Positions 23,890 through 64,000 of a stretch of 64,000 nt of DNA are shown piece by piece. The position numbers were made by a program, and so were the translations under genes. This DNA is from Patescibacteria group bacterium. Lineage in GTDB: Bacteria > Patescibacteriota > Minisyncoccia > Phycocordibacterales > CSBR16-119. The notes beneath the pieces were generated by a model. That model did no database searches. It had not been told where the DNA came from and worked only from the letters and a program-made list of their open reading frames with translations. Location of the stretch: contig JBPOJJ010000002.1 in NCBI GenBank assembly GCA_052033715.1, positions 1,676-65,675 of the forward strand. Direction: 5' to 3'. Position 1 is the stretch's first letter. Each line of letters begins with the position of its first letter.

Positions 23890-24142
23890 TATACACTGTC
23901 CTTTAGGCCCCGCAATCTTGACGCCTTTGTCCTTTATCTTCCATCTTCCTACGGAGCAAAATGTCTTTTGGAAAAGGCTCGCCGGAGGATTTTTGTTTAC
24001 AAAAAAAATCCGAGGCGGAAGAAAATTTTTCTCCTCAAAGAAAAATTATTCTGAACTTTTCCAAGAGACATTTTGCGAAGCGCTTTTGCACACCATAAAA
24101 TAAGGCTCAATCGCAATTCCACATGTTACAATATCTCCATAT

Positions 24143-30716: not shown

Positions 30717-31193
30717 TTAGAAATTGTCAGCGTAGACGAGAGCCTGATCAATCTTGGTATATGAGAAGATTTCATCCTCGGAGAAGAATCTGGCAACTTC
30801 TTTTGCACCGTTTTCCACAGAATCAGATGCGTGAACGACGTTTGATTGGATAGACATGGCCAAATCACCCCTTATTGTTCCCGCTGGGGCTTCGTAGGCC
30901 TTGGTTGGACCAACAATAATGCGTACTGCGTCCACTGCGCCAATACCCGAAAGCGCCATCACGACGACTGGAGAAGATTTCATAAATGATTTGATACCAG
31001 CAAAGAAAGGTTTATCTTTGATGTGGGAGTAGTGATCCTCGAGCAAAACGTCTTCGAGAGTAAGCATCTTTAGGCCATTGATTTTTAAGCCCTTCTTCTC
31101 GAATCGGCCAATAATCTCGCCAACCAAATTTCTCTGGATGGCGTCAGGCTTCATAATGATAAGGACTTTTTCGTTTTTCGGATGAGTGTTCAT
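30717..31193 (-). CDS. ndk: nucleoside diphosphate kinase
   Basis: 158 aa from ATG at 31193 (MNTHPKNEKVLIIMKPDA...); active-site NVVHASDS; the track ORF extension to 31415 runs into a structured element and is rejected. Confidence 0.85.
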   Translation of the reverse strand: MNTHPKNEKVLIIMKPDAIQRNLVGEIIGRFEKKGLKINGLKMLTLEDVLLEDHYSHIKDKPFFAGIKSFMKSSPVVVMALSGIGAVDAVRIIVGPTKAYEAPAGTIRGDLAMSIQSNVVHASDSVENGAKEVARFFSEDEIFSYTKIDQALVYADNF

Positions 31194-31211
31194 ATTTCCT
31201 AGTGAGGAGCA

Positions 31212-31231
31212 TTTGCGAGCTTGCTCGCAAA
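31212..31231. promoter_or_regulatory. perfect palindrome TTTGCGAGC-TT-GCTCGCAAA in ndk 5' region (putative operator)
   Basis: 9-bp perfect inverted repeat 19-38 nt upstream of ndk start. Confidence 0.3.
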
Positions 31232-31332
31232 ATCTCCGAACGACGGAAATATACGAGACGAGCGGAGCGAGGGCTCTTATATTATTCTTAAATTTTAATA
31301 AGCGTAGTTTAGCAGACTTCCGTTCCCCCTTC

Positions 31333-31490
31333 AAGCGGAGCAAAACATGCCAGAAAAAGTTTTCAAACGCACCCGCAGTCCTGACGCCAAAGCGGAAGGA
31401 CGTGAGGGGGCGCACCTCTATTTCGACGGGTGTTACTTAGGAGGAATAGGCGCGCTTTTTGAAAACTTTTTCTGGCATGTTTTGCGGAGC
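31333..31490. repeat. structured intergenic element, copy A: conserved core flanked by ~26-bp closing inverted repeat
   Basis: AAGCGGAGC + stem AAAACATGCCAGAAAAAGTTTTCAAA ... core GAAGGACGTGAGGGGGCGCACCTCTATTTC..GTGTTACTTAGGAGGAATAGGCGCGC ... stem TTTGAAAACTTTTCTGGCATGTTTT + GCGGAGC; abuts stop codon of upstream ATPase gene. Confidence 0.6.
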
Positions 31491-34225
31491 TATATTTTCA
31501 TGAACTTATCCATCACTTCCTTCTCCACTTCATCTCTCGGCCTGCCGAATTTAAGGAATGACAATTCTTTGAGCGAGTCAACGATTTCCGGATTACCTGG
31601 TGGCAAGTCTTGAGTTCGAATGTTAAATGGTTTGACTGGTACACCATCAACAAGCATCGAAATGTAGGCGTTTCGATTATCGAGCTTCAATATGTCTTGG
31701 ACCGTAAACGTCGGTTCGAGACGTTTGACCAAAACCTCGGCATCTTCGGAGCTGATGCGAAAAATTCCCATTGAACCGACGTTTCCGAGAACCGCGTTTC
31801 TAATGTCATCAGAGAGCTGTGACAAGTATTGATGTGCAACATTAAGTGAGAGTTTGTATTTGCGAGCTTCGGAGAGGATTGATGAAATTGAGGGTGTGGT
31901 GAAGTTCTGGAACTCGTCAATATAGAGATAAAACGGTGGCAAACTTCCGGCTCCGTCAGCACGCGACAGTGCGGCCATCTGGATTTTGCCGACAAGTATG
32001 AGACCGAGTAGGTTCGCATTGATATCACCGAGCCTTCCCTTTGACAGGTTCACCAAGAGAATTTTCTTATTATCAATAATCTCGCGGAAATTGAAACTCG
32101 ATTTCTCCTGCGCAATAATCGGACGCATGATTTCGTTTGAGATAAACGTGTCGAATTTGGACGTGATGTATGGCACAAAGTTCTCAAGACCCTGCTCACC
32201 CGTCGTCGCCTCAGCCGTTTTCCAAAACTGGGTGATGATTGGGTTCGTACAATGAGACAATTTCATATCGCGGAATTTCTTGTCCGAAAGCACGCGACCA
32301 ATTTCAAGCACGGTGTTTCCTGATTCTGGATGGGCCATAACCAATCCAGCGGAATTTTTAAAATATTGTTCGAATAGCGGTCCGCCGGCCGTCTTCATGT
32401 CAAAGAGCTGATTAAAAATGCCTAGCAGTTCGTTAATAACGAGAGTTTTCTGTTCTGGACGCTCTGGGTCAAACTCAAGCATATTGAGCGCCATCGGCCG
32501 AGAGGTCGAAGCTGGATCAAAGTAGATAACGTCATCAATTCGATGTTTTGGAATATAAGAGAGAATTTTCTGAATATCAGTTCCGTGCGGATCGATATAA
32601 CAAACCCCATCACCTCGCTCAATATCCTGACGAATCATATTCATGAGAATTCCCGTCTTACCCGTTCCTGTTTGACCGATAACGTAAAAATGTCGCATAC
32701 GATCAATTTCTTTCAAGAACACGTCGGTATCTACACCACGATAAGAGTTGATACCAATCTGAATACCGTCAGTCCCCATATTGATAGGCACTGCCCCTAC
32801 ACCGGCTTTGGACTCACGAAGTTCTGGTGAGCCAGTCGTACCAACTGGGAAATGCACAAGCGTAGAAAGCTCTTTGAAATTTAGCGGCATAGCGTCGCGC
32901 TCGTTTGGCATACGGAAAGAAAATGCATGAAAAAATTGCGTCGTGTCTTTTTCTTGGACCTTGTGAAATCGAACACTGTTAGAGTTCGCCTTGGTAAATT
33001 GGGAAAAAGACGACTCAATGTTCGATATTATCTCGGCGGTACGGCCAGCGGATGGCGATGACGCAATGATGCGAATGTTTGCCAAGACGATGGTTGATTT
33101 GATTTTTTCAGAAATATTTTCGACGGCTCGATCATCGACGTCTTTGCCCTCATCGGACTTTTCCCTCTCCGCGACTTTCTGACTTTTGAAAAGTGATGTA
33201 CCGAAATTCTTGAACTCTTGTTTTATATCGTGAAAATCATCAAGCGCGTGTTTCAATTTTTCTCCATGTTTTACTTTGTCCAAGATTTTGGAGAATTTTT
33301 TGATATACGTGTCGCCAGCCGGCATAATGACGAACTGTAAAGCGGCTCCTTCGGTTGTCTTGTCGAGCTTGGAAAAGGCGTTCAAAATCGCCCCCATTGG
33401 ATCGTGGTCAAATTCGTCGTGAGTCTTGAGCGGAAAGACATCATGATCAGAAAGTGTGGCATAAGCACCCGAGGTTACGCCCTTGTCGATAAAAATATTG
33501 TAGTCGTTGGTGACTTCGGTCACACGAGCGTTTTTATAAAAAGAAAGAATTTGTTTTTCTAGCAAGCTCTTGCGATCCTTTGGAATTGAAACGTAGAGGA
33601 TTATTTCCGGTGAATCATGTGAGACAGAAATTTCAATAGTGAAATATTGCTTGAAACGATTTTGCTCACCTGACGCAATCGTCTGCATGCCGGCCAAAAA
33701 CTGCTCCATGGCCGTGAGGAAATCTTTAAAACTTTTACTCTCACCTTCGAGTGGCGGAAGCGTCACTTCGAAAAGAGCGAGGTTCAATGACTTCCATTCC
33801 GGCGTAGTTTCTTTGAGACCCGGAATATTGCCAGAGGTGTGCAAGAACTGAACAAGAAATCGGTGAAAATCATCCTCGACGTGAGGATTTTTCAAGCGCG
33901 ACACAATTTCCATGGTGTTTTTGATTCCGTGTTCGAGCAACATTCCATACAACTCCTCGATCTGGCTATCGTGCTCTTCGGGCTTGAGCGCGAGAGCTAC
34001 CGCTTCGGTTTGGGTATCTTCCATGCGGAAATTATCGTGCAAGACTTCGGCCGAGTCAGCTTTCTTGTACGCAGACAATGTCTCATGTGTCGCCTCTTCG
34101 CGAGACTTCTCGATATTTTGGCTAGCCAGAGATTGCTCATGCTTGGCGACTTGTTCTCTCAAATACGAAAGCTCCTCTTCGGGAGTTTTAAACTTCGGAG
34201 CTTCTCTCGAACCACCAAATTCCAT
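31490..34225 (-). CDS. VirB4/TraC-like (T4SS-type) P-loop ATPase, 911 aa, with ~500-aa uncharacterised N-terminal region
   Basis: Walker A HFYVIGQTGTGKTG followed by ...GVCYIDPHGT; Walker B YLYIDEFQNF; layout (long N-domain then ATPase) resembles VirB4/CagE/TrbE; no other T4SS genes nearby. Confidence 0.55.
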   Translation of the reverse strand: MEFGGSREAPKFKTPEEELSYLREQVAKHEQSLASQNIEKSREEATHETLSAYKKADSAEVLHDNFRMEDTQTEAVALALKPEEHDSQIEELYGMLLEHGIKNTMEIVSRLKNPHVEDDFHRFLVQFLHTSGNIPGLKETTPEWKSLNLALFEVTLPPLEGESKSFKDFLTAMEQFLAGMQTIASGEQNRFKQYFTIEISVSHDSPEIILYVSIPKDRKSLLEKQILSFYKNARVTEVTNDYNIFIDKGVTSGAYATLSDHDVFPLKTHDEFDHDPMGAILNAFSKLDKTTEGAALQFVIMPAGDTYIKKFSKILDKVKHGEKLKHALDDFHDIKQEFKNFGTSLFKSQKVAEREKSDEGKDVDDRAVENISEKIKSTIVLANIRIIASSPSAGRTAEIISNIESSFSQFTKANSNSVRFHKVQEKDTTQFFHAFSFRMPNERDAMPLNFKELSTLVHFPVGTTGSPELRESKAGVGAVPINMGTDGIQIGINSYRGVDTDVFLKEIDRMRHFYVIGQTGTGKTGILMNMIRQDIERGDGVCYIDPHGTDIQKILSYIPKHRIDDVIYFDPASTSRPMALNMLEFDPERPEQKTLVINELLGIFNQLFDMKTAGGPLFEQYFKNSAGLVMAHPESGNTVLEIGRVLSDKKFRDMKLSHCTNPIITQFWKTAEATTGEQGLENFVPYITSKFDTFISNEIMRPIIAQEKSSFNFREIIDNKKILLVNLSKGRLGDINANLLGLILVGKIQMAALSRADGAGSLPPFYLYIDEFQNFTTPSISSILSEARKYKLSLNVAHQYLSQLSDDIRNAVLGNVGSMGIFRISSEDAEVLVKRLEPTFTVQDILKLDNRNAYISMLVDGVPVKPFNIRTQDLPPGNPEIVDSLKELSFLKFGRPRDEVEKEVMDKFMKI

Positions 34226-34234
34226 AACAATATT

Positions 34235-34295
34235 GTATCATGCACCGAAAAAAGTATCTGTAGAAATGAAAGCGCCCCCGCTGTTGGCGGGGGCA
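34235..34295 (-). terminator. putative terminator after pyrC (GCCCCCGC-TGTT-GCGGGGGC) with downstream T-tract
   Basis: 8-bp GC stem; T-run ~20 nt downstream on minus strand; followed by TACAAT-like -10 for the ATPase gene. Confidence 0.4.
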
Positions 34296-34314: not shown

Positions 34315-35487
34315 TCAGTCCATTCGATGGGCTGGATCTTCAACATCTTCTGGAATGAGGAGTTCGGGCCTCAAAGCCTCCGGGATGGTGGGCTTCCAAG
34401 ACAGCCTGCTACCTGCCATGAGCGGTGTGATGCCACCATAAGATGGTGGAATTTCCCAACCTTCTTCGCCCGCGTATTCAAGCTCGAACGTGTCATCGTT
34501 CGGCTCCATTCCGTAGATACGTGCACCGTTCGTGACAGTGAAAGCTTCGAATGCTGGATGGTCAAGCCTCATCATCTGGTCGAAAATATAGACCATCAAT
34601 GGCCCCATCACTGGCGAACTGAAAACGCCAGGGCATCCGCAACTGCAGAGCTTTGTCGGATCGAGGTGTGGCGCCGAATCGGGTCCAAGATGGAGCTTGT
34701 TGTATCCTAGTTCATCGGCACGAAGCACCGCTGTAAGCAATGCTTGTTGATCAACGAATGTCTGCACCGGTGGACGACAGTGATGAAATGGGTTGATGCC
34801 AGGATTTCCACCAGCGACCGGCCACTCCAAGACATCGTTACGTGTCATCCAAAGATGCTGCGGGGTAATGCCGCCTGTAATGCACTCCGGCATCTTCAAG
34901 ACCATTTCTAGTGTGCTCGCGGTAGAAATGTGCTCGATGTTGAAACGCACGCCCGGGAATTTCTCAACAAGTCCCAAGAATGCCTCTTCCATGAACACGC
35001 CTTCGCGTGCGTATGTATCGATCTTCTCGCCCGGCTGTTCGCCGTGCAAACAGATGATGAGCTCGCGAGATGCTGCTTTTTCGATCGCAGAGTACATTTC
35101 TTGGAATGAATTCCAAGCACTTCCCTTTTCGTTCGAATTGGTCACACCCTCGGGATAGATCTTGACCGAGCGACCACCGAGGCTTTGAAACGCGGCAAGC
35201 TCTAGTAGATGAGTGTCTTTCACCAGCTTCATCGCAACACTATGCCTCATCTGTGGTGCCCTTCTGTGAAGTTCGCGCCGGTAATTCTGGGAATCAGTCG
35301 CACTGAGAATTGGCGGAGCCGTATTCGGCATCCACACCTCGTGTTGCGCCCACCAAGCAGTGGTCGTTACGGCGGTATGGAAGCGTGGTACAGGCTTTTC
35401 GTTGCCAATCACGTTGCGAGCGTGCCCGTGGGTCTGGAAGAACTTACGGAATTTTCGGCGTTCGCCGATTTGCGGTCGTGTGTTCAT
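34315..35487 (-). CDS. pyrC: dihydroorotase (E. coli PyrC-type, class II)
   Basis: ~390 aa from internal ATG (MNTRPQ...). PyrC motifs WMPNTAPP, ITPQHLWMTRNDV, GPDSAPH, SCGCPGVF, FTVTNGARIYG. ATGA overlap with pyrD stop. GC-rich (~55%). Confidence 0.85.
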   Translation of the reverse strand: MNTRPQIGERRKFRKFFQTHGHARNVIGNEKPVPRFHTAVTTTAWWAQHEVWMPNTAPPILSATDSQNYRRELHRRAPQMRHSVAMKLVKDTHLLELAAFQSLGGRSVKIYPEGVTNSNEKGSAWNSFQEMYSAIEKAASRELIICLHGEQPGEKIDTYAREGVFMEEAFLGLVEKFPGVRFNIEHISTASTLEMVLKMPECITGGITPQHLWMTRNDVLEWPVAGGNPGINPFHHCRPPVQTFVDQQALLTAVLRADELGYNKLHLGPDSAPHLDPTKLCSCGCPGVFSSPVMGPLMVYIFDQMMRLDHPAFEAFTVTNGARIYGMEPNDDTFELEYAGEEGWEIPPSYGGITPLMAGSRLSWKPTIPEALRPELLIPEDVEDPAHRMD

Positions 35488-36446
35488 GCGAAGTTTGGGT
35501 GTTGGTTGATGGTTTTGATGAGTTCTTTCATGCGCCATGGACGCGTGATAGCAGCGGTACCGAGTGAAATGCCTTTGACGCATTTCAATTCAGCAAGCTG
35601 TTCAATATCCTGGACGGATGTAACTCCGCCCCCGGCAATGATCGGCTTTTTGAAGCCGCTATACTCAGCATGTTGAAGCCACTGCAGTGTCGTTCCGAAG
35701 ATTGGTTGTCCTGACAGCCCGCCGCCGCCATACTTTTTGAGAGGCGAGCCGTTTGGGAAATAGGTATGTACACCAGCTTCGGAAATGGCGCCGAATGGAA
35801 GAGTGTTGAAGCAAACAAGTCCAGCGCAAGCCGGATGTTCTTCGATCGCCTTGGCATCTTCAACGGACGTAAGCTGGTTGATCTTGACCAAGATCGGAAC
35901 ATCCAGGCTCGCAAGAACATCCAGAAGCGGCTTCGCAGCTTTTGCGGTCTTCGCTGTATCATGACCAGTATTAGGACAAGACACGTTCAGCTGTACCGCG
36001 AATTTCGTCATAAACCTGGTCTTGTTGACCAGATCTACGAATCCTCGCGCCTGAAATTCCTGCGCAATGGGATCGTCGCCGATCGCCATGAACGAGAGCA
36101 TGAACGGATCACGTCTACGCTGCCAGTGACCTTGTGCAATTAGGTGCGCAACTCCAGGTCCGCTAAGTCCAACCGAGTTCAGAACAAGGTTGTTAACGAA
36201 ATCGACGTGGACCGAATCCGGAAACATCTTCTTCAGGCCGATTTGATTCTCGGTCAATTCAGTATTCCCCTTGTTAGGATTGAATGTCGTCGTCTTGGCA
36301 CAGAACGTCATACCATCGAATGTAAATCCAGGCATGAGTTTGTAGAACGGATGATGGCGGTACTCGGTACCAGCATCACCCCCGAAGAAGCCTTGAACGC
36401 CAGAGGCGCCCACGGCAGGACTGAAGTGGATTCCTCCGATATTCAT
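35484..36446 (-). CDS. pyrD: dihydroorotate dehydrogenase family protein (class 1 DHOD/DHPD-like TIM barrel)
   Basis: 320 aa; NSVGLSGPG, LNVSCPNTGH, GGGGLSGQPI, IIAGGGVTSVQD motifs matching class-1 DHOD; GC-rich. Confidence 0.7.
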   Translation of the reverse strand: MNIGGIHFSPAVGASGVQGFFGGDAGTEYRHHPFYKLMPGFTFDGMTFCAKTTTFNPNKGNTELTENQIGLKKMFPDSVHVDFVNNLVLNSVGLSGPGVAHLIAQGHWQRRRDPFMLSFMAIGDDPIAQEFQARGFVDLVNKTRFMTKFAVQLNVSCPNTGHDTAKTAKAAKPLLDVLASLDVPILVKINQLTSVEDAKAIEEHPACAGLVCFNTLPFGAISEAGVHTYFPNGSPLKKYGGGGLSGQPIFGTTLQWLQHAEYSGFKKPIIAGGGVTSVQDIEQLAELKCVKGISLGTAAITRPWRMKELIKTINQHPNFA

Positions 36447-36550: not shown

Positions 36551-37315
36551 CTATTTTGTGAGCACAATTGGCCCTTTTTCGGTGATGGCGACGGTGTGCT
36601 CGAAGTGTGCCGAGAGTTTGCCGTCTTTAGTTATGAACGTGTATTCGTCTTCGGTGACGTAGACATCGCCGGTACCGAGATTGATCATCGGCTCGATAGC
36701 GATAACCATGCCCGGAACAAGTCGCTCGCCCGTGTTGGCTCGGCCGAAGTTTGGAATATATGGATCTTCGTGGACACTGTAACCAACACCGTGACCCGAG
36801 AGGATTTTAACAATTCCGTAACCCATTGGCTTGATATAACTTTCAACCGCGTGACCAATGTCACCGACACGATTCCCGGGCTTCGCGGCCGCGACCGCGA
36901 GCTCAAGAGCTTTCTTTGTAACCTTGATCAATTCTTTGGCTTCTTTGGAAATCTTCCCGACCGGTACAGTAATAGCGCCGTCAGTGATGAGACCCTTGTG
37001 CACGAGACCGAGATCAAGCGACACGATGTCGCCGTCTTTTAGAAAAACCTTTTTGTTCGGGATGCCGTGAACGATTTCATCATTGATCGAGACGCATAGA
37101 GTCGCTGGATATGGATATGAAATTCCTTCGGGTGTGTAGTTTAGAAATGCTGGTTTATCTCCGCCCTCTTTTACAAGTTTGAATGCCAGATCATCCAGGG
37201 CTTTGGTCGAGACTCCCGACTTCGCTTCGGCTGCGACCAATTTCAAAATCTCGGCGTGGCGCTTGCCGCCTTCTCGCATGATTTTTATTTCTTCTTTTGA
37301 TTTGAGTTTGATCAT
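36551..37315 (-). CDS. map: type I methionine aminopeptidase
   Basis: 254 aa; full-length MetAP-I similarity incl. metal ligands (D..D..H..E..E pattern). Confidence 0.9.
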   Translation of the reverse strand: MIKLKSKEEIKIMREGGKRHAEILKLVAAEAKSGVSTKALDDLAFKLVKEGGDKPAFLNYTPEGISYPYPATLCVSINDEIVHGIPNKKVFLKDGDIVSLDLGLVHKGLITDGAITVPVGKISKEAKELIKVTKKALELAVAAAKPGNRVGDIGHAVESYIKPMGYGIVKILSGHGVGYSVHEDPYIPNFGRANTGERLVPGMVIAIEPMINLGTGDVYVTEDEYTFITKDGKLSAHFEHTVAITEKGPIVLTK

Positions 37316-37902
37316 GAGACAGATTCAACTTTTGAAATGAGATCCGCGTATACTTCTTCGATACTGCGCTCGCCATCTATTTCGAAGAAGTTGTAATCTT
37401 TGTTGTCATAGAAATACGAAATAGCTGGAACAACATTCCATTCAAACCACGACAAACGGCTTTTGATGTATTCGTCAGAATCATCTCCACGTCCACGAGC
37501 CTTGAGTCGAGCAAAACACCATTCGTCGCTCGTTTTGATATAGATGACCGTTGGCTTCTCTATTTTGTAGAACTTCATTGCGGAATCAAGCACGGGCGCT
37601 TCATCCGGACGTCGGCAGAGACCGTCGAGAATGAGGTCGCGCTTGCCATCAAACTTGTTCACCAAATCCATCGTCCAGAGCCAGATCGGCAGAAACACTG
37701 GCATAAGGCCACCTTTAGAAAGCACTTCTTTGGTCATCTGGGCAGAATAGTTGGATTGGTCGATAAAATTACGGAATTTCTGTCCGGTTTCAATGTAAAT
37801 TGGCTCAATACCCTTTTTGTCTTCTAGGTACTTTTTCAGCATGTCAGCCTGGGTTCCCTTGCCTGAGCCAGAACGACCGAAGAATATAAATGTTTGTTGC
37901 AT
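37312..37902 (-). CDS. adk: adenylate kinase-family nucleoside monophosphate kinase
   Basis: 196 aa; P-loop GRSGSGKGTQ; adk-map gene order as at end of spc operon; 4-nt overlap with map. Confidence 0.7.
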   Translation of the reverse strand: MQQTFIFFGRSGSGKGTQADMLKKYLEDKKGIEPIYIETGQKFRNFIDQSNYSAQMTKEVLSKGGLMPVFLPIWLWTMDLVNKFDGKRDLILDGLCRRPDEAPVLDSAMKFYKIEKPTVIYIKTSDEWCFARLKARGRGDDSDEYIKSRLSWFEWNVVPAISYFYDNKDYNFFEIDGERSIEEVYADLISKVESVS

Positions 37903-37958
37903 AGGGAAAGTATACCAGAATTAAGAAGTAAGTATTAGGAAGTAAGAAAGACGCCTGT

Positions 37959-38110
37959 AAGCGGAGTAAAAACAAAAAATTTCGTATCTGCGAACCAACC
38001 CGGAGCCCGAAGAGGCGTGAGGGGGCGGGCCTCTAATTTCTCCGCGTGCCACTTAGGAGAAATTGGCCCGCATCTCGCAAAGACACGAAATTTTTTGTTT
38101 TTATGGAGCG
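37959..38110. repeat. structured intergenic element, copy B (same conserved core as copy A, different but still complementary closing stems)
   Basis: AAGCGGAG + stem TAAAAACAAAAAATTTCGT ... core GAAGAGGCGTGAGGGGGCGGGCCTCTAATTTCTCCGCGTGCCACTTAGGAGAAATTGGCCCGC ... stem ACGAAATTTTTTGTTTTTAT + GGAGCG; ends 5 nt from rpsR stop codon. Confidence 0.6.
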
Positions 38111-38115
38111 CCTTG

Positions 38116-38313
38116 TTACTCGGCTACGAATGGTAGAAGTCCCATGATGCGAGCGCGTTTGACGGCGGTCGACAGGTGTTTCTGGTTCTTGGTTGAGAGC
38201 TTGGTCTTTTTCTTTGGCATCAAGCGGGCGCTTGAATCAAGAAATTGCTTCAAGATCGCAGTGTCTTTGTAGTCGATATACTTTATGTTGTTTGAAGAAA
38301 AATAATCTTGCAT
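38116..38313 (-). CDS. rpsR: 30S ribosomal protein S18
   Basis: 65 aa; S18 signature ...KKTKLSTKNQKHLSTAVKRARIMGLLPF. Confidence 0.85.
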   Translation of the reverse strand: MQDYFSSNNIKYIDYKDTAILKQFLDSSARLMPKKKTKLSTKNQKHLSTAVKRARIMGLLPFVAE

Positions 38314-39337: not shown

Positions 39338-39523
39338 GTTTTTTCGATTATTTATAATTTGTAAATCATTTTTACCCCACTTCGCCAAGGCTTCGCGGGG
39401 CTTTTGCCCGGATTTGGGCAAAAGAAAAACGCATCGTTATCGGACCAAGCGACGCCCCATGTTTTCAGAGGAGTCGAACGAAACGCTTGGGCAATAATAG
39501 CACAGGGCCCTAAAAAGTAAAGC

Positions 39524-48391: not shown

Positions 48392-51300
48392 TTATTTTTC
48401 TATTCTTATTTCTTCTCCGCCAAATTTTATTTCCTTTATACCTGCGACTTTTTGGAGTTCGGATTCGAAGCCAGAAATGATTTCTTTGGAAGATTCTGGA
48501 ATTGTAAGAGTGACTAGATCACTTGGCGACAAATCATTATCTTTTCGAAGACCTTGGACACTGCGGAGAAATTCTCGGAAATCGCCCTCCTTCTTTAATT
48601 CGTCAGTGATGTTTGTGTCGAGTGTAATTTCTGATCCAGAAATTATTTCTTTGACGTTTACTTCATCTTTGAGAAGTTCCAAATATTCCCCATCTAACTT
48701 TTGATTTATCGTAAGTGTTGCAAGCGGCTGGCGGACTTTGATATTAGCCTTCTGACGTGCTTCAAGTCCAGCGGTTACAAGTTCACGAGTCACTTTCATC
48801 GATTCTAAAACTTTTTCATCTATCTTTTTCACTTCGGGCCACGACTCGAGATGAACCGATTCTTTCTCGCCACCCACTTTCTGGTATAAATCTTCGGCGA
48901 AAAATGGCGTCATTGGCGCCATAAATTTCGCGAGTTCTGTAAATACGTGTTTGGTTGTCGCGAGAGCGAATTGTTTATCATCTTCGTCATCGCCCTTGAA
49001 GCGATCACGCGAACGGCGGATGTACCACGTCGATAAATCATTTACAAAATCACGAAGCGCACGAGCCGGCTCAAATATTTTGAACTCATCAAACTTCTCG
49101 GTTCCCTCTCTAACCATCTCGGCAAGTTTGGCCAAGATCCAAGCATCGAGAACGTTCGGACTTTTGTTCGGCTCGAAACCAGATTTCATCTCGCCAACAT
49201 ATGTTTCATAGAATTTATGACAATTTAAAATAAGTGTGAATATTTTGCCATGAAGTTCAGCCACCGTTTTCTCATCGAAGTTTTTCGAATCTCCCGGCTG
49301 GTTCACCGAATACATCCACAGACGCAATGTGTCGACGCCGTATTTGTCCATCATCTCCCATGGGTTCACGATGTTGCCAATTGATTTCGACATTTTCTTG
49401 CCCTGCGCGTCGAGAATGTGTCCGAGACAAATACAATTTTTATATGACGCGCCCTTGCCCATCAGTACGCCAACCGCAAGAAGCGTATAGAACCATCCAC
49501 GAGTTTGATCGACGGCTTCGGAGATGAAATCCGCCGGATAGCCCGGACCATCGACATATTCTTTGTTTTCAAACGGATAATGATGTTGTGCAAATGGCAT
49601 CGAGCCTGAGTCAAACCAGACATCCATCACGTCTTTGACTCGACGATATTCCACACCGTCTTTTTCGAGGACAACATCGTCGATGAATGGACGATGGAGA
49701 TCAAGTTCTTTTTTAGTCTCGTTGTTTACATAAACCGTATCGACTTCTCCATTATCAATACCGTGAAAAACTCGGATCGCTTCTTCATTGGACAATCCTC
49801 GCAATAATTTCAAAGCGATTTCATTTGTTCCTTGGTGAGCAAAACAAAGAATGGTCTTGCCGGAGTATTTTTCCAAGACATCATCAAGAAAATCCTGTAC
49901 TCGAGCTTCTAGATCCGCCCAACTTTCTCCGTCACCTCCACGCTTCATAACAAAACGATCTTCGGTGGACATATTCTTATAAGCATTTCGCGAAGCTTTT
50001 ATTGCCGGATCATGCTGTGATTTTTCCTCCCAATCACCGCTTTTTATCTCACCCAGACGCTCGTCGAGCACCATCTCAAATCCTCTTGATTTAGTAAACG
50101 CCTCGGCAGTTTCGCGCGCCCTCAAAATAGGCGAAGAGAAAATCACATCCGGCGTAAGATTATTCATCTTTTCAGCGCTCTGTTTGGCTTGTTCTCTGCC
50201 AAGGTCAGTCAAGTGATGAAGCTCAAGCGCGCTCGAAGACATTTCGAGAACATTGTGTTCAGCTTGGCCATGACGGACAAAAAGTATTTTTGTAAGTTTT
50301 TTCTTGGAATATTTTCGAAGTGTCTCAATCGAATCAACAATGATTTTCTCTCTCTTGTCTTCGGTCTGCCAGATTGGAAGCGGTGTACCCCAATAACGCT
50401 CACGAGAAATCGCCCAGTCTTTGATCTCGCGAAGCCACTCACCAAATCGGCCTTCTTTGATGTGAGATGGCTCCCAGTTTATTTTCTCATTCTGTTTTAC
50501 GAGTTCATCGCGAAGTTCCGACATCCGGATATACCAAGAATCCCGCGCGTAATAAATAAGCGGAGTTTTACATCTCCAGCAATGCGGATATGTGTGTTCG
50601 TAATTTTTCTTCCCAAAGAATAATCCCCTTTTGGTCAGATCGTTGATGATGTCTACCGCGACAAGTGGCTTCCCTGCCTCGTCTTTCTCCATAACAAATC
50701 GGCCAGCGAGAAATTCCACTCCCGGCAAGAATTTACCATCAAGTCCGACAGTGTGAATCTTTGGAAGTCCCTCACGTGTCGCCAACTCAAAGTCGTCCGC
50801 TCCATACATCGGCGCGATGTGTACGATTCCCGTTCCATCTTCGGTTGTGACGAAATCTCCAGCATAGACTTTGAAACTAGCTTCTAGCTTTTCGCTTTTA
50901 GCTTCTAGTGGATAAAGAGGTTCGTACTCCATGCCTATCATCTCACTACCTTTGTGTTCTGCAATAATTTCATAAGGCTCCGTGATGATCGAAAGCATCG
51001 CTTTGGCGACAACCAATATTTCCTCGCCGACTTTCGCTTCGACATACTCGACATCTTTTCCAACAGCTAATGCGACGTTGCCTGGAAGCGTCCATGGTGT
51101 TGTCGTCCAGGCGACGAAATATGCCTTGTCGAATCCTTTGATTGGAAACTTCGCAAAAATCGATAGGTCTTTGACATCTTCATACCCCTGCGCGAGTTCG
51201 TGTGACGACAAAGTTGTCCCGCAACGCGCGCACCATGGCAAGACTTTGAAGTCGGCGTACAATAAATTTTTCTTGTTCACTTCTGAAACGATATTCCAAA

Positions 51301-51781
51301 GTGATTCGATGTAATTTGTATTGAAAGTAAAATACGCATTTTTTTTGTCCACCCAATAACCGATACGATCCGTAAAATCTTCCCAATCTTTGATGTAATC
51401 GAAAACGCTTTGCTTACACTCGGCGTTGAATTTCTCGATGCCGTATTCTTCGATATCCTTCTTCGACTTTAGTCCGAGCTTCTTCTCAATCTGAAGTTCA
51501 ACTGGAAGTCCGTGCGTATCCCAGCCACCCTGGCGGGCGACGTGAAAGCCCTGCATCGTTTTGTAGCGAGGTATGACGTCCTTGAAAGCCCGAGCTTCGA
51601 GATGGTGAAGCGCTGGCTTGGCGTTAGCCGTCGGTGGGCCTTCGAAGAAGACGAATTCGCCTTTTGGGGATTCTTTCGAGAGAGATTTATCAAATATTTT
51701 GTTTTCTGCCCAGAATTTAAGAACCGCTTCTTCTTTTAGAGCGGCGTCAGACTTCTTGGGCACTCCCTGGTCCTTTTCCAT
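48392..51781 (-). CDS. ileS: isoleucyl-tRNA synthetase (type 2/eukaryote-like) carrying an internal histidine-phosphatase (PGAM-like) domain insertion
   Basis: 1129 aa; HIGH-region (PALHHLEARAF), CP1/editing region, WGTPLPIW, DVWFDSGSMPF, KMSKSIGN, anticodon-binding C-terminus; ~195-aa insert with RHG...R...E...H phosphatase motifs. Confidence 0.9.
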   Translation of the reverse strand: MEKDQGVPKKSDAALKEEAVLKFWAENKIFDKSLSKESPKGEFVFFEGPPTANAKPALHHLEARAFKDVIPRYKTMQGFHVARQGGWDTHGLPVELQIEKKLGLKSKKDIEEYGIEKFNAECKQSVFDYIKDWEDFTDRIGYWVDKKNAYFTFNTNYIESLWNIVSEVNKKNLLYADFKVLPWCARCGTTLSSHELAQGYEDVKDLSIFAKFPIKGFDKAYFVAWTTTPWTLPGNVALAVGKDVEYVEAKVGEEILVVAKAMLSIITEPYEIIAEHKGSEMIGMEYEPLYPLEAKSEKLEASFKVYAGDFVTTEDGTGIVHIAPMYGADDFELATREGLPKIHTVGLDGKFLPGVEFLAGRFVMEKDEAGKPLVAVDIINDLTKRGLFFGKKNYEHTYPHCWRCKTPLIYYARDSWYIRMSELRDELVKQNEKINWEPSHIKEGRFGEWLREIKDWAISRERYWGTPLPIWQTEDKREKIIVDSIETLRKYSKKKLTKILFVRHGQAEHNVLEMSSSALELHHLTDLGREQAKQSAEKMNNLTPDVIFSSPILRARETAEAFTKSRGFEMVLDERLGEIKSGDWEEKSQHDPAIKASRNAYKNMSTEDRFVMKRGGDGESWADLEARVQDFLDDVLEKYSGKTILCFAHQGTNEIALKLLRGLSNEEAIRVFHGIDNGEVDTVYVNNETKKELDLHRPFIDDVVLEKDGVEYRRVKDVMDVWFDSGSMPFAQHHYPFENKEYVDGPGYPADFISEAVDQTRGWFYTLLAVGVLMGKGASYKNCICLGHILDAQGKKMSKSIGNIVNPWEMMDKYGVDTLRLWMYSVNQPGDSKNFDEKTVAELHGKIFTLILNCHKFYETYVGEMKSGFEPNKSPNVLDAWILAKLAEMVREGTEKFDEFKIFEPARALRDFVNDLSTWYIRRSRDRFKGDDEDDKQFALATTKHVFTELAKFMAPMTPFFAEDLYQKVGGEKESVHLESWPEVKKIDEKVLESMKVTRELVTAGLEARQKANIKVRQPLATLTINQKLDGEYLELLKDEVNVKEIISGSEITLDTNITDELKKEGDFREFLRSVQGLRKDNDLSPSDLVTLTIPESSKEIISGFESELQKVAGIKEIKFGGEEIRIEK
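49712..50293 (-). other. inserted histidine phosphatase superfamily (branch 1, phosphoglycerate-mutase-like) domain within ileS (approx. residues 497-690)
   Basis: KILFVRHGQAEHN (RHG catalytic His), SSPILRARETAE (Arg), LDERLGEIKSGDWE (Glu), ILCFAHQGTNEIALKLL (second His); located between WGTPLPIWQTEDKREKII and ELDLHRPFIDD...DVWFDSG of the synthetase. Confidence 0.65.
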
Positions 51782-52197: not shown

Positions 52198-53892
52198 TCA
52201 CATCCTGTCAGGAGATTTAATACCGAGAAGTTGCAAACCGTTTTGAATTACAATTCCGACAGATTTCGCGAGCGCTAGATTGTAACTGGTGTTTTTATTT
52301 TCCGGATCAACAAGTTTGGTATTTCCGTACCAAGAGTTAAAAGCTCGAGCAAGTTGTAGAAGATACGTCGCGACGTGATGCGGCGCCCATTCGCTAATTG
52401 CGAGCTCGACGACTTCCGGAAATCTGGCGACCAGCTTCTCGACATCGCTTGGTAAATCTTCAACAACCCTCTCGGCTTTTGGCGCAAGACCTACTTGCGA
52501 AGCCTTTTCCAACACAGAATTGATGCGCGCATTTGTGTATTGCAAATATGGTCCAGAATCGCCTTCGAACGATAACGATGTTTCAGGATCGAAATTTATA
52601 TCTTTACCAGCCATCGTGCGAAGGATCGTGAATTTCAAGGCACCAATAGCGACGGCGTCGGCATCCCGCCCCAGATCAACTTCTTCTCCTGATCTATCGG
52701 AGACTTCAGTAAGCACCGTTTCAAGAACGTCGGCCGCGGTTGGCACGCCTCCAAGACGACTAGACATTTTCTTGCCCTTGAAACTCATGCGACCATGAGT
52801 CTTGTGCAAAGTCTTTTGTTGCCAAGCTTTTTCAATTTTCCCAGCCGCGGCCAAAACGACTTCGTAATAACGCGCCTGCTCCCTGTCGGTTACAAGTATA
52901 GAAATGTCGGGACTGTATCTTTCAAATTTGAGCCACAAAAGTCCAATGTCTTTGGCTTCGTACGTCGGATAACCTTCAGCGTTTATAAAGACTCGAGTGT
53001 GAAGTCCATCAGCTTCGCCTTTGTAGATAACAGCATTTTCTGATTCTTCGAAAATTCCTCCAAGGTTTTGAAGTACTATTTTTTTACCAACGTCTCCGGC
53101 TTCAGATTCATAGACGAAATCGTCGAACGTTGATCCGAGTCTTGCGGTGATATCGAGGAAGTACTGAAGCGTGATGTCTTTGCCGGCGACGTAAGCATCG
53201 TATTCAACTCCCGGAGTCTTTTCATAAATCATTTCGGTGATTTCTTTCACCCGACGCACGATTGATGGATTTTCATCGTAGGCTTTGGTGCCTTCAACGT
53301 AGCAAGTTCCCAAGAAAGCGAGTCTGTCAGAAAGAGTTGGAAGTTGCTTAAGCTCGGAAACACCATGCTCGAGAAGCGCCCAGACAGCTTTACCAATTCC
53401 AAGCGAGACGTCTGATGGATATGACATTTTGGTCACGCGAGCGCCGGACGCGCTGGCGAGTCGTGCAACAGACTCGCCGATAGCGTTGTTCATGACGTGA
53501 CCGACATGAAATGGTTTGAAAAGATTCGGTGATGAATGTTCAACGAGGATATGTTTGCCTGCGTGAACTTCTGATTTACCAAACTGCGAAGTTTGCGCCA
53601 AAATTTTTCCAATTTCTGATTGGAAAAATTTTGGCACCAAGCGAAAGTTTATAAAACCCGCCGCCGTTGTGACAGATTCGACAAGCTCATGCTTATCCAT
53701 CTTCTCGACGATACTTTCAGCCAGAGCCACAGGATTGGTCTTGGTCACTTTGGCCAAAATCATAGCGACGTTCGTCGAATAATCGCCATGAGAAATCTCC
53801 ACCGGATGATCAAGGGTTATTTTCTCTAAGTTTATATCTAACTTTTCCAACGCCTCTCTAACGAGGCTTATGATTATTTCTTTTATTTCCAT
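52198..53892 (-). CDS. argS: arginyl-tRNA synthetase
   Basis: 564 aa; HIGH-type (PFHVGHVMN), ArgRS N-terminal domain and DALR-like anticodon domain. Confidence 0.9.
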   Translation of the reverse strand: MEIKEIIISLVREALEKLDINLEKITLDHPVEISHGDYSTNVAMILAKVTKTNPVALAESIVEKMDKHELVESVTTAAGFINFRLVPKFFQSEIGKILAQTSQFGKSEVHAGKHILVEHSSPNLFKPFHVGHVMNNAIGESVARLASASGARVTKMSYPSDVSLGIGKAVWALLEHGVSELKQLPTLSDRLAFLGTCYVEGTKAYDENPSIVRRVKEITEMIYEKTPGVEYDAYVAGKDITLQYFLDITARLGSTFDDFVYESEAGDVGKKIVLQNLGGIFEESENAVIYKGEADGLHTRVFINAEGYPTYEAKDIGLLWLKFERYSPDISILVTDREQARYYEVVLAAAGKIEKAWQQKTLHKTHGRMSFKGKKMSSRLGGVPTAADVLETVLTEVSDRSGEEVDLGRDADAVAIGALKFTILRTMAGKDINFDPETSLSFEGDSGPYLQYTNARINSVLEKASQVGLAPKAERVVEDLPSDVEKLVARFPEVVELAISEWAPHHVATYLLQLARAFNSWYGNTKLVDPENKNTSYNLALAKSVGIVIQNGLQLLGIKSPDRM

Positions 53893-57881: not shown

Positions 57882-57949
57882 CCCCCACACCTATATTTTG
57901 ATAGTTCTTCGAACGCGCCTTTGGCGCCATCAAAATATAGGTGTGGGGG
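57882..57949. repeat. 21-bp perfect inverted repeat (CCCCCACACCTATATTTTGAT ... ATCAAAATATAGGTGTGGGGG) flanking 26-nt spacer
   Basis: long-stem element between DoxX start and PNP terminator; contains TATATT/-10-like boxes, so could be operator/promoter or hairpin element. Confidence 0.5.
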
Positions 57950-63895: not shown

Positions 63896-64000
63896 GTGGC
63901 ATAAAAAAGACATTACGGAGGAAGCCGGCCCATCAAGGCCGGCTTCCGAGTATAGCGGCCAACTGTTTACAAGTTGGAACGCGCGTCTTTTTTATGCCAC
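63896..64000. repeat. 16-bp perfect inverted repeat (GTGGCATAAAAAAGAC ... GTCTTTTTTATGCCAC) enclosing ~73 nt with internal hairpin GGAAGCCGGCC..GGCCGGCTTCC
   Basis: long-stem element ending exactly at window edge. Confidence 0.45.

Follow-up and report, generated by a model that had tools for sequence, protein, structure and literature searches.

The stretch of DNA analysed here (64,000 nt, or 64 kb; hereafter the window) comes from a Patescibacteria group bacterium and holds two long intergenic hairpins, elements A and B, which share a structured core and are closed by stems that are unrelated between the two. Each is bounded by a pair of short purine-rich motifs, the brackets, and the plus strand is, for the elements, the strand on which these brackets are rich in purines. 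Element A (31335..31490, plus strand) follows a gene for a 911-residue TraG/VirD4-like protein (DUF8128; 31490..34225, minus strand), and downstream of it lie a second insertion, element E, and ndk (30717..31193, minus strand), which encodes 158 residues from an ATG at 31193. A first-pass annotation made from the sequence alone had taken the upstream gene for a VirB4-like ATPase; its TraG-D_C and TrwB_AAD_bind domains, together with DUF8128 in relatives, make it look instead like a TraG/VirD4-type coupling protein. The placement of A between the stop codon of this gene and ndk stands, with the refinement that the true ndk start at 31193 leaves about 140 nt between A and ndk, element E included. 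Element B (37961..38109, plus strand) comes after the stop codon of rpsR (38116..38313, minus strand), the final gene of rpsF-ssb-rpsR, and upstream of adk (37312..37902, minus strand). Both elements had been described as starting 0-5 nt from the upstream stop codon, which needs a small correction at either end of that range: the A bracket overlaps the stop by 1 nt, the final base of its right bracket being the G of the minus-strand TAG, and B lies 6 nt past the rpsR stop.

Both copies were recovered where they had originally been placed, and both are complete. In A, the brackets GCGGAGC (31335-31341) and GCGGAGC (31484-31490) accompany perfect 28-nt arms (31340-31367 and 31458-31485) that enclose a 90-nt core (31368-31457). 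B has the brackets GCGGAGT (37961-37967) and ATGGAGC (38103-38109) and arms that are perfect over 19 nt (37967-37985 and 38085-38103) around a core at 37986-38084; the arms can be extended to 23 nt at 96% (37967-37989 and 38081-38103), and the enclosed interior measures 91-99 nt depending on the choice of arms. The cores are clearly related, with 64 of 82 aligned positions identical (78%), and two long core motifs, CGTGAGGGGGCGNNCCTCTA and ACTTAGGAGRAATNGGCNCGC, occur twice each in the 64 kb, solely in A and B, where 0.01 and 0.03 occurrences would be expected by chance. The closing arms show no excess likeness, their 15 identities comparing with 11.3 +/- 2.9 in shuffled sequence. The proposal of a shared core enclosed by stems that are unrelated between copies and complementary within each is thus borne out, and the 9-bp helix AATTTCTCC/GGAGAAATT within B and the end tags AAGCGGAG and GGAGC are present as reported. 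The core is laid out as a CCC...GGG helix bearing a variable hairpin, followed by a bulged hairpin. Its best-conserved stretch (CGTGAGGGGGCG..CCTCTA..ACTTAGGAGGAATAGGCGCGC), at 31401..31455 on the plus strand in A and 38016-38071 in B, folds as a bulged hairpin with an outer helix of 7 bp and an inner helix of 5-9 bp. Between the two cores there is a single truly compensatory pair and one U.G/U-A change. Folding on both strands, which had been suggested as a check, shows each strand of each copy to be far more stable than its shuffles (A: z = -8.7 and -8.9; B: z = -5.8 and -6.1).

The comparison with relatives shows that A is an insertion. We gathered syntenic contigs of relatives via their ndk homologs and gauged relatedness by ndk identity, which is a crude proxy; the names attached to these homologs, Pacebacteria and Minisyncoccia, point to an uncultured bacterium of the candidate phyla radiation type. 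Between the stop codon of the coupling-protein gene and the ndk ATG lie 31-32 nt in L007, L012, L019 and L021, whose ndk is 91-97% identical; the distance is 62 nt in L032, 96 nt in L013 and 296 nt in the window, which therefore has two insertions in this spacer, A plus about 23 nt, and E. The spacer orthologous to the site of A is empty in relatives at 97%, 91%, 89% and 87% ndk identity. In L022 (ndk 95%), a different element sits directly after the same stop codon, in the order TAG, CTCCGC, AAAACAT...ATGTTTT, GCTCCGC; it has the tags and outer stem of A, but its inner stem is another one, its loop has 17 nt and the A/B core is missing. Element E (31204..31268, plus strand; brackets GAGGAGC at 31204-31210 and GCGGAGC at 31262-31268) has an interior of two small hairpins without a long stem. 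The inserted stretch to which it belongs spans about 77-85 nt (about 31201-31277), separates the ndk promoter from the ATG of the gene and is missing in all relatives, including one at 99% ndk identity.

The site of B is occupied in relatives by other hairpins. Five unrelated hairpins were counted in the rpsR-adk spacer of five relatives: the window and L012 have common flanks and a common outer AAAAAC/GTTTTT around unrelated interiors, and a further unrelated hairpin is present in each of L013, L023 and L032, all of them beginning within a few nucleotides of the rpsR stop. The same is seen at a third site. Element C (23951..24081, plus strand) lies between the divergent DeoR-type helix-turn-helix (DeoR-HTH) and ftsK genes, has the brackets ACGGAGC and GCGAAGC and arms of 21 nt in which one pair is U.G on the plus strand, and contains two hairpins, one of which has the loop GTTTACA; in L007, this site holds an unrelated 25-bp perfect hairpin between conserved flanks.

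These elements have a common anatomy. On the plus strand of the window, the frame 5'-GC GRA GC[stem ... stem]GC GRA GC-3' holds for A, C, L012:5579-5717, L022:171-243 and L026:2570-2656, and for B with two mismatches. The orientation of the brackets is identical in every element seen, and only 3 of 200 Markov simulations reach the observed count of bracketed elements, even with a lax 6-bp stem criterion. The two brackets of an element are predicted by RNAfold to pair with each other in antiparallel fashion, as GC/GC, a 3x3 purine loop (G.A, G.G, A.G) and GC/GC. Because GCGGAGC is quasi-palindromic, the direct-repeat tags at the ends of A and B lengthen the hairpin and form a purine bubble in it; the tags described in the first-pass annotation are there, but they do not stand as separate direct repeats. 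Both GCGGAGC and GCGAAGC fit the GCGNAGC mini-hairpin consensus exactly. An outer stem GCAAAA(A)C(A/T) is common to several members, and the remaining stem varies freely: A, B, C and the L012 and L022 elements have in common the brackets and an outer G[CT]AAAA(A)C of 7-10 bp, beyond which their arm sequences match no better than shuffles. The stems are perfectly Watson-Crick apart from two exceptions in closing helices, a G.U that closes B beside the bracket and the U.G in C, in each case on the plus strand only.

Within the stems we distinguish three types of interior module: the A/B core, a GTTTACA-loop module and an F3 module. The second is defined by the 9-nt loop TGTTTACAA, which is found on three unrelated stems, in C, in element D and in L012. 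Element D (63896..64000, no strand assigned) has 16-nt perfect arms around two hairpins, the second with the loop GTTTACA; on the right its flank is truncated at the end of the window, on the left it has no bracket, and it has the linker CGAG..AGCG and the loop CTGTTTACAAG in common with the rpsR-adk element of L012. The F3 core (CTCRCCCTGCGGRAGCGTGT.TTC.CACTA.GTCCTCG.GA) is 82% identical between L012:7106-7200 and L026:2575-2651, that is, between two different organisms and loci, and its closing stems are unrelated; the L026 copy has the brackets GCGAAGC and GCGGAGC, and the L012 copy is unbracketed and begins at the map stop codon. Since both the TGTTTACAA loop and the F3 module also sit in unrelated stems, the combination of the same core with a different stem is a property of the whole class. 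A permutation of motifs between the A/B and F3 cores (CCCGCAG and ACTTAG in opposite order) was judged not significant, resting as it does on a 6-mer and a 7-mer. A further, T-shaped palindrome at 57882..57949 (no strand assigned), with 21-nt perfect arms around two mini-hairpins, has no brackets and lies between convergent genes just upstream of a canonical terminator.

Database searches brought up no relative of A and B. Rfam 15 covariance models gave zero matches to the 64-kb window at gathering score, and the best match by E-value in a search of the window at E <= 10 was a plant microRNA model, which scored 15.9 bits where 50 was required; no known family thus matches A or B. Scans with the core pattern of viral (IMG/VR), GTDB species-representative and JGI metagenome contigs returned only chance matches in GC-rich coding DNA, and blastn against phages and plasmids returned no further copy. 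Run on the window with filters off, a covariance model of the A/B core recovered A and B alone, and it had no match in 127 kb of relatives. A third copy, whose failure to appear the first-pass annotation had named as a count against its own proposal of a functional RNA, was therefore not found in the window, in these relatives or in the collections. Bracket-pattern scans of viral contigs gave one chance match, and a search of viral contigs for the coupling protein found only one relative, 30% identical. Coding sequence was dropped as an explanation of A because the open reading frame (ORF) through A is not kept in B, and a promoter, or a terminator of the canonical kind that a consensus scan calls, was dropped as well.

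The reading that we favour, with a confidence a little above even, is that A and B are diverged members of a family of lineage-specific, non-autonomous, modular palindromic elements that act as 3'-end or terminator hairpins. A member of this family is about 60-160 bp long and consists of a pair of GCGRAGC brackets, a perfect stem of 16-28 bp ending in A/T-tracts and an exchangeable interior of small hairpins. The elements are gained, lost and swapped among closely related strains and are mostly located directly 3' of stop codons, in place of the plain palindromic terminators of the lineage. Once transcribed, each would form a giant hairpin that probably terminates transcription and/or shields the 3' end of the upstream mRNA, and that would be a potential substrate of RNase III. 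What the data show are the insertion polymorphism, the common anatomy and the absence from databases; the mechanism of mobility and the role as terminator or stabiliser are inferred. As for the unrelated perfect stems, we infer that they come from events at the level of DNA, either replacement of whole palindromes or homogenisation of the arms by hairpin-templated copying, and would not be the product of selection on single RNA base pairs. The first-pass annotation had read the divergence of the stems with preserved pairing as covariation, and hence as the mark of a conserved functional RNA. This does not hold, since the site of A is empty in relatives, the site of B is swapped and the apparent covariation is a wholesale swap of perfect Watson-Crick palindromes without stepwise compensatory change. 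Its suggestion of an attenuator of ndk or adk fails as well, because A and B are missing at the orthologous loci of close relatives; being strain-level insertions, the elements are not conserved regulators of these genes. The alternative it offered of a hairpin in the 3' untranslated region (UTR), serving as a terminator or stability element, is plausible for the position, and such a role would agree with the reading given here.

Several observations weigh against this reading. No target-site duplication was found, and the empty sites in L019, L021, L007 and L012 contain neither GCTCCGC nor any other duplicated flank, from which it follows that the brackets arrived with the element; look-alike flanks (the TAACAAGGCG and TTACAGGCG of B, and the AT-rich flanks of E) show only a vague likeness and were rejected as duplications. 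None of the copies seen are near-identical, A and B being alike (78%) in the core alone. Among the approximately 60 ORFs of the window, there is no transposase, integrase, reverse transcriptase, Rep/HUH or Nop-domain protein; a retron msr-msd was likewise dropped for want of a reverse transcriptase among these ORFs. The terminator consensus scan called neither A nor B, because the loop is too large and the stem AT-rich. Two elements are not at 3' ends, C lying between divergent genes and E in a 5'UTR, so that insertion is not limited to 3' ends. The purine strand, which is the more stable one by 1.5-8 kcal/mol in six of six bracketed elements (-80.2 against -72.1 for A), is antisense to the genes that flank A and B. 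Finally, the data span the 64-kb window and about 200 kb of relatives of this lineage.

The perfection of every stem, as if one arm had been copied from the other, could also be explained by palindromes that are made and remade in situ by replication template switching at terminator positions, in which case nothing would be mobile and the likeness of A and B would be due to local duplication or gene conversion. In a single step, template switching is documented both to generate perfect hairpins and to maintain them (PMC8794818), and the five unrelated hairpins at the one orthologous rpsR-adk site would fit such a process. Within argS (52198-53892, minus strand), a perfect palindrome (VPKFFQSEIGKIL; 53597-53635) whose 17-nt arms enclose a 5-nt loop also suggests that palindromisation operates in this genome: the sequence is ordinary ArgRS coding DNA between the N-terminal and catalytic domains, not an insertion, and may be a footprint of palindromisation by template switching. 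However, template switching copies adjacent sequence, and neither arm of A or B resembles the sequence of the empty sites. The same brackets and outer stem are moreover present at unlinked sites and in different genomes, identical core modules lie inside unrelated stems, and E has brackets and modules yet no long stem; we regard this explanation as rather unlikely. The strand bias of the elements bears on another explanation, which is that A and B are structured non-coding RNAs made from the plus strand, in antisense orientation to the neighbouring genes, or cis-regulatory RNAs of ndk or adk. The better folding of the purine strand in all six bracketed elements would fit an RNA, as would the restriction of non-Watson-Crick pairs to G.U on the plus strand (the closing pair of B, the stem of C and the core of A), the compensatory pair in the core helix and the retention of loop sequences on variable stems. 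G-richer strands fold better generically, though, and the plus strand is without a promoter-like site. The absence of the element from orthologous loci in close relatives, its limitation to two copies with no homolog in the pattern scans of GTDB species representatives, JGI metagenomes and IMG/VR, and the lack of an Rfam match argue in the same direction, so that we consider an RNA of this kind unlikely.

The brackets themselves suggest that the elements might act as single-stranded DNA (ssDNA), the purine strand folding into a mini-hairpin, a T-shaped hairpin and a second mini-hairpin. An enzyme specific for this strand would then act on the folded structure and move or copy the element. Candidate enzymes would be an HUH nuclease or relaxase, a primase or an attC-type recombinase, and hairpin-primed synthesis would keep the stems perfect. 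GCGGAGC and GCGAAGC fall within the GCGNAGC mini-hairpin consensus, and this mini-hairpin is extraordinarily stable as ssDNA and nuclease-resistant; an engineered extension of the related GCGAAAGC motif binds single-stranded DNA-binding protein (SSB) poorly, motifs of the GCGNAGC type are found at phage ssDNA origins, and GCGGAGC itself is present in the ssDNA promoters of phage N4 (PMC13037366). The T- or Y-shaped build, with a long perfect stem and two small hairpins, the 9-nt loop kept on three unrelated stems and the constant orientation of the brackets would also be in keeping with recognition of a single strand. On the other hand, the window encodes no candidate enzyme, extrahelical bases of the attC type are lacking, the GC skew indicates that the purine strand is not the lagging-strand template, and the argument is one from sequence resemblance; we think it quite improbable that the elements act in this way. 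A fuller version, in which they would be a new single-strand-based mobile element of the candidate phyla radiation (CPR), is in our view very doubtful. Here, the purine-strand T-hairpin with its two GCGNAGC mini-hairpins would be nicked or recognised at loops such as TGTTTACAA and copied by hairpin-primed, rolling-hairpin-like synthesis; one arm would be regenerated from the other, so that stems would stay perfect while drifting, and interior modules would be permuted. Least credible of all is that A and B are stand-alone TIGR-type (box C/D-like) guide RNA units. TIGR stem-loop arrays do have variable palindromic stems, are found in CPR bacteria and show too little sequence conservation for annotation tools (PMC12045711). 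In contrast, A and B are dispersed single units and not tandem arrays, their loops are fully structured and not 8-12-nt spacers between C and D boxes, the stem base has no RUGAUGA or CUGA motif, and the window encodes neither a Nop-domain nor a Tas protein.

If A and B are modular palindromic elements, as we favour, they resemble several known classes of repeat in part. The Correia/NEMIS elements of Neisseria, which are about 100-160 bp long, have long inverted repeats, are intergenic and strain-polymorphic, and form a co-transcribed hairpin that can terminate transcription or be processed by RNase III. Correia copies have common inverted repeats and a TA target duplication and number in the hundreds, nearly identical to one another. 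The elements of A/B type are similar in size, in their long inverted repeats, in their intergenic position beside genes and in being strain-polymorphic, but their inverted repeats agree only in the outer 7-10 bp, they show no duplication, and the core is known from just two copies. The BIMEs of E. coli, BOX (boxA-boxB-boxC) and ERIC are high-copy elements with conserved module sequences, intergenic and transcribed, with a proposed role in mRNA stability or termination. Like these, the elements described here are modular, with end modules that pair with each other and exchangeable internal modules; unlike these, they have hypervariable stems, a unique quasi-palindromic GCGRAGC bracket and an apparently low copy number. 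The long perfect stem around two small hairpins also recalls the inverted terminal repeats of parvoviruses such as adeno-associated virus (AAV), which are T-shaped hairpins that contain a Rep-binding site and serve a linear ssDNA genome as telomeres, and the double-hairpin or repetitive hairpin elements of fungal and sponge mitochondria, which are small, invade intergenic DNA and vary among close relatives. This likeness to AAV repeats and mitochondrial hairpin elements is one of architecture only, with no sequence relation, and the mitochondrial elements differ in being organellar and repeated. The latter are treated in PMC2800124.

Of the features typical of transposable elements of the miniature inverted-repeat kind (MITEs), each of A and B carries its own terminal inverted repeats (perfect arms of 28 nt and 19 nt, respectively), and insertion polymorphism is seen, A and E being missing in relatives with 87-99% ndk identity. 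Many near-identical copies and an autonomous insertion sequence were not found, the search yielding two copies only, with no further copy in the 127 kb of relatives or the collections and no transposase in the window. It had been argued that A and B are no plain MITEs with common terminal inverted repeats, and we agree, given that there is no target-site duplication and that the inverted repeats differ between copies. MITE-like small mobile sequences of bacteria are the subject of a review (PMC2229807). REP/REPIN sequences are imperfect palindromes of 20-40 bp with a GTAG or CGTC head, a high copy number and a RAYT gene (PMC3733652); we rejected this class because A and B have neither head, their stems are perfect and unique, and there is no Y1/HUH gene in the window. 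Integron attC sites were also rejected, since the stems are perfect without extrahelical bases, the neighbours are housekeeping genes and no integrase is encoded in the window; the attC-like AAC and GTT are found in A and B and not in C. The GCGNAGC mini-hairpin is a structural motif and no family of elements; here two copies flank a long hairpin and could pair mutually instead. The intrinsic bidirectional terminators of the lineage share the position of A and B; they are perfect palindromes with a 5' A-tract and a 3' T-tract that start 0-30 nt past stop codons. A and B lie 0 and 6 nt past stops; their U-run (GUUUU) is at the base of the stem, and the consensus scan calls neither. Canonical terminators have arms of 13-18 bp, a GC-rich top and loops of 0-11 nt; A and B have AT-rich arms of 19-28 bp, a structured interior of 90 nt and brackets. 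What sets the class apart from known repeats is a bracket that is quasi-palindromic, stems that are hypervariable yet perfect, modules that are exchanged at fixed sites, and a low copy number.

The genes around the elements offer several further observations. An extended -10 (TGnTAnAAT/TATACT) lies about 6 nt ahead of the ATG of the adk, DeoR-HTH and coupling-protein genes (window 37903-37925, 23890-23912 and 34226-34250, respectively), and adk has its own, TGGTATACT, 6 nt ahead of the ATG; the corresponding mRNAs are apparently leaderless because of this short distance. The ndk region (31194-31290) differs in the window by insertion E. In relatives, the distance from the motif ATTAAAAT(TT) to the ndk ATG is only about 9-12 nt, so that the mRNA would have a very short leader at most; E gives the window an ndk leader of about 90 nt, with a new AGGAAAT directly before the ATG. 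The spacer between the coupling-protein gene and ndk is a hotspot (window 31194-31489; L022:172-1295; L023:5485-6237; L028:1-606). It contains small accessory genes of 271 residues in L022, 176 in L023 and 73 in L028 and L029, and elsewhere measures 31-96 nt. Two additional upstream genes, between map and the coupling-protein gene (34315-36446, minus strand), were considered as transposases and dropped, as they encode a pyrC-like dihydroorotase and a pyrD-like dihydroorotate dehydrogenase. This pair is missing from the same spacer in L012, L013, L023 and L032, has a GC content of 0.52 against about 0.44 in its surroundings and looks like a strain-specific metabolic islet. In L010, a gene with Hint and LAGLIDADG (intein/homing endonuclease) signatures (L010:1-1355) lies about 8.6 kb upstream of ndk, and the gene order to the left of ndk is unlike that of the other contigs of the same ndk cluster. 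The TatD-rpsF spacer of L032 (L032:2663-3062) is 400 nt long, GC-rich and visibly structured, compared with about 100 nt in the window (39422-39523), and may be another inserted element or a leader RNA. Lastly, a 1129-residue class I tRNA synthetase of the window (48392-51781, minus strand; tRNA-synt_1 and Anticodon_1) has a histidine-phosphatase domain (His_Phos_1; residues 499-689) inserted in the middle of its catalytic domain.

If our interpretation is true, these elements would call for caution, in that a conserved core with a covarying stem, which is the usual proof of a functional RNA, can come from the turnover of DNA palindromes. They would also constitute a previously unrecorded class of repeat in the poorly studied CPR/Patescibacteria, with a quasi-palindromic GCGRAGC bracket, hypervariable perfect stems and exchangeable hairpin modules as its hallmarks. 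The elements might be of use as strain-typing markers and as a test bed for the birth and replacement of terminators in reduced genomes with limited repair. For the biology of the lineage, the class appears to provide or replace terminators and to rewire 5'UTRs at the level of strains, as with E, which would convert an apparently near-leaderless ndk into a leadered gene.

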